Of a stretch of 64,000 nucleotides of DNA, positions 18,001 through 21,000 are shown piece by piece. Source of the DNA: an uncultured Planctomycetia bacterium (lineage in GTDB: Bacteria; Omnitrophota; Gorgyraeia; Taenaricolales; CAZCCH01); the NCBI GenBank assembly GCA_964497315.1, contig CAZCCH010000006.1:11830-75829 (forward strand), given 5' to 3'. A program made the position numbers. Position 1 is the first letter of the stretch. Each line of letters opens with the position of its first letter.

Positions 18001-21000
18001 ATGCGATTAGGAGTGAGTCAATTAGATACGGGTGAGCCGTTTAACAAAAATATCCATTTTAAACTAGCAGACCCTATAAAAACTGAAAAGGTATATACCC
18101 GCCTAGAAGAAGATGAACAGGTATTACTTGAGAACAAAAATGGCTGGAAGTTAAAAGATGGATTAAACCTAAGGACAAAGATAAGAGGATGGGTCGAAAT
18201 AGGAGATATGTTGGCATTAAGCATTGAGCCTGCAATGAGAGCTTCGGAAGATGAAATGGATCTGGATCTAGAAGAGATTTGTTTTAAGGTAGGTATTGGA
18301 AATTTAGAGATGGGATTTGGCAGGGATACCCTGTGGTGGGGACCCGGATATCATGGTTCCATGCTTTTATCTAATAACGCATACCCATTGCCCATGTTGA
18401 AACTTAGCAACCAACGTCCGTACAAATTGCCTTGGTTGCTTAAAGAAATGGGAGATTGGAACAGCGTATTTTTCATAAGCAGACTTGAAGAAAAGAGGGT
18501 GATATCAGAGCCATATCTGGTAGGTATGAGGACAGAATATAATCCGTTTTCTTATTTTACCTTTGGTATGTCCAGGACAATAATATTAGGTGGTGAAGGT
18601 AGACCACATCTTTCCTTGAGTGATTATGTAAGGATTTTCAGGGCAGCAGGAAGGACAGAATTTAAAGAAGGCAAGCTTAATACAGATCAACTTGCGGCCT
18701 TTGATTTTACATTAAGACTACCCAGAAGCCAACAAGAATTCTTTAAATGGCTTAGCAATATAGAACTATATTGGGAGTATGCAGGTGAAGATAGGTTTGC
18801 CCCTTGGGAAAATGAAGCCCCAGGTTACCTACTGGGTATTTATACACCGGACTTATTTAGATTTAATGGGTTAGATTTTAGGGCTGAGTATGCAAAGACA
18901 GGTTCTAGCTGGTACACCCATGGTACATATGGAACGGGATACAGATATAAAGGTTCCATATTAGGCCATCATATGGCAACGGATGCGCAGGATATATTTC
19001 TTATGTTATCAAAAGATTTTGAAAATAATATAAAGGCAAACTTTACCTTGGATGTCGAAAGACAGGGTGTTTCTTTATCGAATGTACAAAGGAAATTGGA
19101 GCTTGGAATTAATTTTGCCTTGGCTCCTTTTGAAGATAAAGATTTGAATATAGAAGCTGGTTATGAACTGGAGCATTTTGATAATTATGAAAATGTAGCG
19201 AATAAAAAGGTGAAAAATCATATTTTAGAATTTGCTACCCACTTGAAATTTTAAACAAGGAGTCTTCCATGAAAAAGATAAGCATATTGATTATAGCTGT
19301 ATTTTTAGTAGAATTGATAGGCACCGATATCCTCCTGGCCCAACAACAAGATCCTCTACTGCTGATTGAGGAAGCCAAAGAGGTCTTAGGGAGGAAAAAG
19401 GCAGAGGTAGACACGCTCAAGCAATATGGGAAGTCCGAAGATGCCATGCTGGGAAAGGGAGACTGGACTGCCTTTTCCTGTCCCTCCTGCAACCAAACGT
19501 TTCAGGTCAACGTTGGCATTGATACAGAGCTTGAAAAGGGTTTGAAAAAGATTATCTGTCCCTACGATGGAACAGAATTTTTCCCTAGGCAAGAAGCCAT
19601 ACGCGAGGCATTGGAGCAGCCATCTAAGCCCATAACTATAAAATCGCCATTTACGGGAAGGGAGTTTAAAACAACTACCAGTATTAATGATGTTATATAC
19701 GGAGACGCAATAGTTGATCCGTTTACAGGTAAAACCTTTCGTTTTAGGCCAGAGGAGATAAAACCCAAAGCTGGACTAGCAAAAGGGTGGCAGAGTGTAA
19801 TAGGTCCTGATGGAAGGATGTTCAAGGTACGCGTTGGTACTGAGGATAAGTTAGAAGAGATAATTTCTCCTTATGACGGTTCAGTTATTCAATTGGGGTT
19901 TGGGGGTATAGGTTATGGTGGAGCTATGCCTTTCGGGCAAAAGAAGCCCTCTTCAATAGAAAAGATGTTTTCAAGGGGCATACGGCCGCATGTATCAAGG
20001 GCCATAAGGCAATTTGGCTATGACATATTCCCTGAACCAACCATAAGACGTGTTATGCAAGATGCAGGCAAGAGAGATAGAATGGATGCTGGCAGGTCTT
20101 ATGAAAATAAACTTTTTGATGATGCTAGAACGTCTATTACAGAAATGATAAGTCCGAGTATTAACACAAGGAGTGCTGCTTTTGAGAAGGCTATGTTTTA
20201 CCCAACAGGGAATGTACCGGTAGGTTCAGATTATATACTAGGGCCAGACGATACGCTTATAATAAATATATGGGGCGCAATGCAACAAACCCTACCTGTT
20301 ACCATAGATAGGGAAGGGAAGATAATGCTTCCTAAGGTGGGACCGCTGTATCTTTGGGGAACTAAATTCGGTGATGCAGAAAATCTTATAAGGGAAAAAT
20401 TAGAAGAGTCCTATACAAACATTAATGTAAGTGTCACGATGGGCCAACTTAGGACCATAAGGGTTTTTGTCTTAGGCCAGGTTAAACGGCCAGGTGCATA
20501 CATATTAAGTTCTCAGGCAACAGCGTTCCATGCATTATATGAAGCCAACGGGCCAACAAAACTAGGTACACTAAGAAAGATTAAATTGATACGTGAAGAT
20601 AAAACAGAAGAGACCATAGACCTTTACAAGCTCCTTTTAAATGGGGATAAATCACAAGATTACAGGTTATCTGCCAATGATACCATATTTGTTCCATCTA
20701 TAGGGGATGTAATAGGTGTTGCAGGTAATGTGAAGAGGCCTGCCATATACGAAACCCTTAGTCAGGTAAGTCTATTAGACCTTCTTAATATTGCAGGAGG
20801 TGTGGGTTCTGCGGGTTACTTGCAACGCATGCAGGTTGAGAGGATTGAAAGGCACCAGAAAAGAATAGTGCTTGACCTTGAATTTAAAGATACGGAAAAC
20901 TTAGAGGTTAAAGCAAAGGATACTAAACTACAAGACGGTGATCTTGTCATTATTTATCCTGTGTCTGCTGTAAGACGAAACTATGTCTCAATTAATGGAA

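Follow-up and report, generated by a model that had tools for sequence, protein, structure and literature searches.

On a 64,000-nucleotide stretch of DNA from an uncultured bacterium of the GTDB phylum Omnitrophota (assembly GCA_964497315.1, contig CAZCCH010000006.1, positions 11,830 to 75,829 of the forward strand; hereafter the window), one gene encodes a 999-residue protein of the outer-membrane polysaccharide export (OPX) family with an additional module at its N-terminus. This accessory module is real, conserved and restricted to one lineage, and it is undescribed on OPX proteins. It very probably consists of three tandem zinc-ribbon units, the first of which carries a candidate metal site. 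In published OPX architectures Poly_export comes first, and the current three-class scheme has no place for accessory modules at the N-terminus. In the searchable literature, which is incomplete, there was no description of such a module on an OPX protein, in Omnitrophota or elsewhere, and no mention of a "periplasmic zinc finger" or "periplasmic zinc ribbon".

The module is marked by short motifs that begin at residues 71 (CPSCNQTF), 97 (CPYDGTEF), 126 (SPFTGREF), 150 (DPFTGKTF), 179 (GPDGRMF) and 200 (SPYDGSVI). The pattern P[YF][DT]G occurs four times within residues 25-316, a number that was reached in none of 20000 shuffles. The six knuckles (A1, B1, A2, B2, A3 and B3) align in register across 31 proteins, and 32 excised A-B units fit a single alignment in which Pro of knuckle A, Phe at A+6 and Pro of knuckle B are invariant and Tyr nearly so. 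An earlier note on this DNA had described a CxxC motif followed by five repeats of 8-9 residues. Since the six knuckles are in register and all units fit one alignment, the CxxC and the "five repeats" are instead parts of one system, the true unit of which is about 45 residues long, has two knuckles and is present in three copies.

Unit 1 of the OPX protein is detected by unit-2 and unit-3 profiles made from other proteins (19.6 and 24.3 bits, respectively); the best of 1000 shuffles, measured with the unit-1 profile, scored 10.3 bits. Units 2 and 3 are recognised by their own-unit profiles from other proteins (39.6 and 27.2 bits, the unit 3 match spanning residues 172-209) and score weakly with the profiles of the other units, being more degenerate in this protein. 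In Cys-rich homologues the knuckles of unit 2 read CPxC and CPYD, and those of unit 3 read CPxD/CPYD in homologues.

In an AlphaFold2 (AF2) model of the whole module, based on a 12-row alignment, every unit forms two beta-hairpins with a predicted local distance difference test (pLDDT) score of 70-88. The predicted template modelling (pTM) score is 0.26, which means that the units have no fixed mutual arrangement, so that the module resembles a string of beads. A single unit, modelled from the 32-unit alignment, reaches a pLDDT of 81.8 and has the order beta-beta-alpha-beta-beta. The short motifs sit at the hairpin turns of these models and the CxxC belongs to a ribbon element, much as the earlier note had supposed when it called them beta-hairpin-like and zinc-ribbon-like. 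Foldseek gave no statistically significant match for the single-unit model, as expected at 49 residues. The best superposition was on the ZnR domain of ZitP (2nb9; template modelling score 0.63 both ways, root-mean-square deviation 2.4 Å over 44 columns, E-value 1.4 and not significant), followed by Tim15 (0.62) and then HOIP, MCM and S27e, all of which are zinc ribbons. The sub-threshold Pfam matches within the module are likewise all to zinc-ribbon or zinc-finger families; Zn_ribbon_4 scores 12.9-13.8 bits on the OPX protein, below its cut-off of 30.3, and the best E-value among homologues is 0.00067. From models of moderate confidence, all three units are predicted to adopt a zinc-ribbon fold like that of ZitP, with the hairpin turns facing each other across the short helix.

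ZitP ZnR, a PopZ-docking module of family PF13719, has a beta-beta-alpha-beta-beta "crab claw" fold with four Cys at the beta1/beta2 and beta3/beta4 turns (PMC5182065). With the ZitP/MJ0042 ribbons (PF13719 zinc_ribbon_5 and PF13717 Zn_ribbon_4; 2NB9) the present units share a length of ~43-45 residues, the topology, ligands placed in the turns and the C-P-x-C-x-x-x-F knuckle. ZitP ZnR is cytoplasmic and single and has four Cys, whereas here the ribbons are periplasmic, occur in three tandem copies, use Asp as the fourth residue and in many cases have no Cys at all; neither this protein nor any of the three-unit relatives examined has a unit with four Cys. The module scores below the Pfam threshold and lacks the four Cys of that family, which it probably resembles in fold and may resemble in action without being filed as a member. 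The "novel domain" of the earlier note thus stands only in part: the ribbon fold itself is common, and what is new is the periplasmic OPX setting together with the Cys3-Asp and Cys-free variants.

The best PDB sequence matches of the module profile (E 1e-7) are tandem C2H2 arrays, such as Aart (2I13) and the consensus finger 1MEY, with which it shares a periodic knuckle, x-C-P-x-C-G-x-x-F every 26-29 residues. Membership of that family was rejected. The alignments cover only the 10-15-residue knuckle, the module has no His at the expected spacing and no His ligands, it lacks a recognition helix, its predicted topology is different and the protein is exported, all of which points to convergence of the motif. 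Zinc ribbons with and without Cys are known from the C+ and C- forms of the ribosomal proteins S14, L33 and L36, and in LIM domains CxxD serves as a terminal pair of zinc ligands, the second finger having a Cys3-Asp site. A fold that exists with or without its metal ligands in different lineages, and Asp as the last ligand in CxxD, are therefore found elsewhere. These proteins are cytoplasmic or eukaryotic and have other functions, so that the likeness is conceptual only.

The ribbon module is a real, constrained domain under purifying selection. The two closest orthologue pairs give ratios of nonsynonymous to synonymous substitution rates (dN/dS) of 0.05 and 0.15 for the ribbon region, while Poly_export and the stack of SLBB domains have values of 0.03-0.07. 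The leader and following helix and the linker are far less conserved than the ribbons; over residues 1-63, identity to orthologues is 12-32% in six of eight pairs and 56-67% in the two closest. Every ribbon residue that is at least 80% conserved is either a ligand or part of the mini-core (C, P, Y/F, D, G and F), and conservation over 52 full-length proteins revealed no conserved surface patch on the ribbons. In the linker, S228, E231, F234, Q248, F249, Y251 and F254 are identical in all 52. As the same linker motif is present in relatives without ribbons, it is a feature of the OPX core and no part of the ribbon module.

The body of the protein is that of an OPX-family member resembling Class 1. 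Poly_export (PF02563) scores 61.6 bits against a cut-off of 28, and C-terminal of it lie SLBB (178.3 bits, six stretches) and SLBB_2 (144.3 bits). As in E. coli Wza (PDB 2J58), Poly_export is followed by SLBB and a putative C-terminal hydrophobic helix, and as in Class 1 systems the gene lies beside Wzi in a surface-glycan cluster that contains Wzx. The hydrophobic segment of ~25 residues at the C-terminus is kept in homologues (dN/dS 0.03-0.05 in close pairs). The Wza_C family was absent from the Pfam scan at E <= 0.1, which, with a candidate co-polymerase partner of only 223 residues, sets the system apart from typical Class 1 representatives. The length of 999 residues and the extra SLBB repeats, to which the earlier note drew attention, are not exceptional, as multi-SLBB proteins have been described and Class 1 members are reported with 1-14 SLBB domains (PMC9603273). 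An identical 999-residue protein is recorded on 7 contigs.

Wza has about 380 residues, is usually a lipoprotein and has a published architecture that starts with Poly_export; here ~290 residues, including the three ribbon units, precede that domain and there is no lipobox Cys. A Sec/SPII signal is found in ~78% of Class 1 proteins (PMC9603273). No such signal was found in the present leader, LLA/QQQ (the slash marks the presumed cleavage point), which by eye is SPI-like; leaders of homologues end in AxA-type sites (AFA/QQ, SFA/ES and VEA/QT). The only cysteines of the whole protein are C71, C74 and C97, none being N-terminal of residue 71. As no hydrophobic segment lies between the leader and Poly_export, the ribbons should reside in the periplasm with the exporter. 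Scans of Pfam and NCBIfam gave no match covering residues 1-316; the NCBIfam hits were sub-threshold polysaccharide-export models only, all past residue 317. The expectation of the earlier note that a module foreign to canonical Wza precedes a Poly_export domain near residue 320 is thereby borne out (Pfam places the domain at 317-391), and no known, common periplasmic domain in either database accounts for it. Its estimate of about 230 extra residues was too low, and the ribbons fill only residues 64-211.

When residues 25-316 were searched exhaustively with HMMER against 1.84 billion representative proteins, 12 hits were returned, 11 of which are genuine clusters; all that are long enough to judge are OPX proteins. 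The remaining hit, a 2145-residue Ala-rich repeat protein (P0012), was rejected as a compositional false positive. A word-indexed search with the same residues gave no match, and with the module profile only one fragment. The module is also encoded by an Omnitrophota metagenome-assembled genome (locus L001, 46% identity) and by 18 metagenome loci, and in 19/19 loci it sits on an OPX core. In a 232-residue ENA entry (P0013), unit 1 and the first knuckle of unit 2 give way to unrelated sequence; this fragment is probably a frameshift or an assembly chimera and not another kind of host protein.

A sister group with a single unit was missed by the HMMER module search and surfaced through a search with the OPX core. 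Altogether 135 family sequences were scanned (the listed core homologues, the earlier hits and their cluster members, and the protein of the window), and these comprise 58 with three units, 59 with one split unit, 9 with none and 9 that are fragments or unclassified. Conservation in orthologues, for which the earlier note had asked, is thus evident from the three-unit proteins. In relatives without units, Poly_export begins near residue 120-165. Where source names are given, nearly all read [quoted passage not shown]; the few relatives named after the PVC group or Firestonebacteria are without units. The ribbon module is restricted to one OPX lineage, whose members show that 0, 1 or 3 ribbon units can be acquired at the exporter's periplasmic base.

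The one-unit group contains ~59 proteins of ~950 residues, including one from Ca. Gorgyraea atricola (examples are P0075, P0107, P0116 and the gene at 6001-8841 of locus L022). Their ribbon is split: RCPxCxMEFYY..PHSHW is followed by a charged insert rich in Lys and Glu and then by TCPYDGxxFFPEG, so that the knuckles are 82-119 residues apart. The conserved PHSHW motif after knuckle A has 2-3 His in 48 of 55 of these proteins, and the extra His may contribute to the metal site or form a second one.

Ligand positions were counted in units 1 and 2 of 57 three-unit proteins. Where knuckle A starts with Cys (80 units), its fourth position is Cys or Asp in 80/80, knuckle B starts with Cys in 80/80, and the fourth position of knuckle B is Asp in 77/80 and Glu once. 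Where knuckle A lacks the starting Cys, this last position is Asp in 1/31. Unit 1 reads CxxC...CxxD in 34 of 56 copies and has CxxD as its knuckle A in 16 of 56; CxxC is therefore not a universal mark of the module. No B knuckle of a three-unit protein has a fourth Cys, and CxxC...CxxC was seen in only 1 of ~115 family members examined, the OPX protein of the window not having it. In the one-unit group 54 of 55 proteins have CxxC...CxxD, and the sole exception has CxxC...CxxC, that is, an Asp-to-Cys swap at a ligand position. Over the 52 full-length proteins, C97 is 100% conserved and C71 and D100 are each 90% conserved. The OPX protein of the window has the full set (C71, C74, C97 and D100) in unit 1 only; the corresponding pairs are S/T and D/T in unit 2, and G/D and S/D in unit 3.

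The interchange of Cys and Asp, the odd number of Cys in the commonest state (three) and the complete conservation of C97 fit a metal site, either Cys3-Asp or Cys2-Asp2, better than a disulfide. From these patterns we lean towards a Cys3-Asp metal site in unit 1, where the metal would probably be one structural Zn2+ ion. The ancestral ligand set of the family appears, from the same alignments, to have been Cys-x-x-(Cys/Asp) in knuckle A and Cys-x-x-Asp in knuckle B. This reading has two caveats. The ligand counts are not corrected for phylogeny, and unit 3 has Asp at the fourth position of knuckle B without any Cys in 28 proteins, so that this Asp is also structural. Units free of Cys evidently still fold and are conserved, which means that metal is not needed for the fold. 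If unit 1 does bind zinc, a site of the zinc-ribbon type would exist outside the cytoplasm, which is unusual, and the literature named above held no description of a Cys3-Asp zinc-thiolate ribbon site in the bacterial periplasm. In any case, the family provides a natural series within one extracytoplasmic fold, from Cys-rich through Cys3-Asp and Cys2-Asp2 to Cys-free.

The dispensability of metal for the fold speaks for an alternative in which the units are metal-free mini-domains. Here a disulfide would link the Cys of knuckle A to that of knuckle B in place of zinc, and the array would act as a rigidified spacer that sets distance or bulk at the exporter base. The module is exported behind a signal peptide with no further hydrophobic segment before Poly_export, the first Cys of the two knuckles always occur together, and the CxxD...CxxD subtypes, with two or four Cys, have an even count. 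Nevertheless, the three-Cys state that prevails in unit 1 and in the one-unit group would leave an unpaired thiol. Furthermore, the restriction of the fourth position of knuckle A to Cys or Asp, and an Asp at the end of knuckle B that depends on the Cys of knuckle A and is once replaced by Cys, is how metal ligands behave, and we regard stapling by disulfides as rather unlikely. The possibility that the region is an artefact, either chance or low-complexity motifs in a spacer or untranslated sequence upstream of the true start codon, could draw on the lack of a curated family match and on the empty word-indexed search. It is effectively refuted by the shuffles, the dN/dS values, ~58 homologues in register behind a signal peptide and the pLDDT of the single unit, and its probability is close to nil.

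Two other functions have been considered for the module. A lectin-like, carbohydrate-binding vestibule, which would catch nascent polysaccharide or guide it into the OPX channel, might be expected within a large glycan-biosynthesis island, and the conserved aromatics (Tyr/Phe at knuckle position 3 and Phe at position 8) could stack on sugars. However, the conserved residues are fully accounted for by ligands and mini-core, with no patch left on the surface, and the array is near neutral in net charge (family range -9 to +5), though UDP-sugar dehydrogenases suggest an acidic polymer. Close relatives whose clusters are similar differ in their number of units (0, 1 or 3), and we know of no zinc ribbon that binds sugars; such a role seems improbable. 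Of the substrate-, metal- or partner-binding functions that the earlier note had put forward, substrate binding thus finds no support, metal binding by unit 1 is suggested by ligand co-variation, and partner binding is argued by analogy only. Alternatively, unit 1 might be a periplasmic redox or metal sensor, in which oxidation of Cys or loss of metal unfolds the ribbon and switches the exporter or a partner contact. Zinc-thiolate switches are known from Hsp33 and the ZAS anti-sigma factors. The Cys3-Asp set is conserved in a compartment prone to oxidation, a mixed Cys/Asp set would, we infer, probably hold metal less tightly than a four-Cys site, and in most one-unit proteins 2-3 His directly follow knuckle A. 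However, many members (the two-Cys subtypes, and units 2 and 3 here) have lost all or most Cys while the module is still under selection, which argues that its main role does not depend on thiols and leaves sensing with little likelihood. An elaboration of the same idea, that the Cys3-Asp ribbon is a redox- or metal-gated latch on docking of the OPX channel to partners in the inner or outer membrane, which couples glycan export to the state of the envelope, with the Cys-free units "always on", is speculative and just as doubtful.

The preferred explanation, in which the ribbons dock the exporter to a partner, is as follows. A Sec-exported N-terminal module of three ribbon units would be joined through a linker of ~100 residues to Poly_export. 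Unit 1 would bind a structural metal, and units 2 and 3 would be relics of this fold that have lost the metal and that rely for their cohesion on the conserved mini-core, Pro-aromatic-x-Gly-x-x-Phe. The D1 (Poly_export) domain of Wza is the contact for the helical arms of Wzc, i.e. the co-polymerase arms (PMC12881504). The ribbon arms would therefore probably emanate from the end of the channel that faces the inner membrane and, as ZnR modules of this fold are protein-protein adaptors, they may connect the exporter with a partner by docking or tethering. In an OPX octamer, a stoichiometry taken over by inference, eight such arms might serve as flexible protein-protein tethers or docking arms around the base of the channel in the periplasm; candidates for the partner are the short co-polymerase of Wzz type, the Wzi barrel encoded next door or some other component of the envelope. 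This docking function, which is argued from analogy with ZitP and Wza, is tentative, and the explanation as a whole, combining architecture, unit-1 metal site and docking, has in our estimate about an even chance of being correct. Should unit 1 bind zinc, the site would offer a handle on how very long OPX proteins are assembled with very short co-polymerases across the envelope of an uncultured phylum of ultra-small cells. The new domain family could enter domain databases; the practical consequence is modest.

Table. Features of the OPX protein and its candidate partners, with positions in the window.
Feature	Position	Strand	Evidence
OPX gene, complete, 999 aa + stop	19269..22268	+	ORF (open reading frame) list; Pfam Poly_export 61.6 bits, SLBB 178 bits
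Sec-type signal peptide, aa 1-24 (MKK..ILLA/QQQ), non-lipoprotein	19269..19340	+	read by eye
Predicted helix, aa 29-59, weakly conserved	19353..19445	+	AF2 model residues 4-34, pLDDT 49-74
Ribbon unit 1, aa 64-108, knuckles A1 C71-P-S-C74 and B1 C97-P-Y-D100, candidate Cys3-Asp metal site	19458..19592	+	
Ribbon unit 2, aa 119-161, knuckles S126-P-F-T and D150-P-F-T, without Cys	19623..19751	+	
Ribbon unit 3, aa 171-211, knuckles G179-P-D-G and S200-P-Y-D, without Cys	19779..19901	+	
Linker, aa 212-316: Gly-rich, then S228-x-I-E-x-x-F...Q248-F-G-Y-x-x-F254, then variable spacer	19902..20216	+	
Poly_export (PES / Wza D1-type), aa 317-391	20217..20441	+	Pfam PF02563, E 8e-17
SLBB stack, aa ~392-960	20442..22148	+	Pfam SLBB and SLBB_2, six stretches each
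C-terminal hydrophobic helix, aa ~975-999	22191..22265	+	Wza_C-like by position only; sequence ..VRDTVGVLYQITLGAIAVAALD
Wzi-family outer-membrane barrel gene	17683..19254	+	Pfam Caps_assemb_Wzi, 271.6 bits
Short PCP (polysaccharide co-polymerase)/Wzz-like protein, 223 aa, transmembrane helix at each end, candidate inner-membrane partner	31228..31899	+	

The window is a co-directional glycan island, with genes for LptD, nucleotide-sugar enzymes, Wzi, OPX, PMT_2, GT2 and GT4 transferases, a Wzx flippase and many B12-radical-SAM enzymes. The Wzi gene stops 14 nt before the start of the OPX gene, and 18 of 19 three-unit loci have Wzi directly upstream of OPX. In all 10 loci with downstream sequence, OPX is followed by a Wzz-like gene of 200-245 residues. 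The copy in the window adjoins Wzx (32463-33965) and scores 23 bits with Pfam Wzz (PF02706; cut-off 25.5), the copy of locus L001 36.4 bits. By eye this mini-PCP has hydrophobic segments at both ends, and its periplasmic loop has only ~150 residues. The pairing of a very long OPX protein with a very short co-polymerase is unusual, and short Wzz-like genes accompany the family with or without ribbons. It has become less plausible that the ribbons make up for a very short PCP, as relatives without ribbons also have Wzz genes of 222-232 residues.

On a specific pairing of ribbons with Wzi the evidence points both ways: Wzi is frequent in the upstream position, but it is also found downstream of a ribbon-less relative and is absent beside one one-unit relative. 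At two ribbon-less long OPX genes (L023 3895-5931 and L025 2864-4912), the usual place of Wzi directly upstream is taken by a gene of the YjbH family (PF06082). This suggests that the partners encoded beside these OPX genes are interchangeable. Of the Wzi homologue in the window the Pfam model covers only residues 146-508, and the first 145 residues (17683-18120) have no family match. A likeness of this N-terminal segment, HHWSYNALEHLVLSGMVGNDGLNTRPMTRMQIARKV, to an SLH motif was noted by eye and was not confirmed by Pfam.

Five paralogues of PMT_2 membrane glycosyltransferases (GT-C / ArnT-like) are present in the window, at 22274-23587, 29843-31201, 39383-40762, 49317-50645 and 50649-52280. 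One of these directly follows the OPX gene, where related loci have the short Wzz-like gene. Its end is overlapped by 7 nt by an ORF of 567 residues (23581-25284), which by eye looks like a multi-pass membrane protein, has no Pfam match at E <= 1, and could be a polymerase or GT-C-like enzyme.

Eight B12-binding radical-SAM genes are found at 35024-36493, 37724-39379, 41490-42995, 42996-44435, 46508-47893, 47897-49342, 52289-53749 and 56833-58335. Together with a SPASM radical-SAM gene (45390-46520), they lie interspersed among the glycosyltransferase genes of a single co-directional island (35024-58335). This density of class-B radical-SAM genes, which probably encode methyltransferases, is unusually high for a glycan cluster. 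Just upstream of Wzi, between two epimerase genes, lies an ORF of 76 residues with a match to the winged-helix family LexA_DNA_bind (~16487-16717; L003 219-449), and in the Ca. Gorgyraea locus an HTH_24 gene comes right after OPX; both may be small regulators embedded in the cluster.

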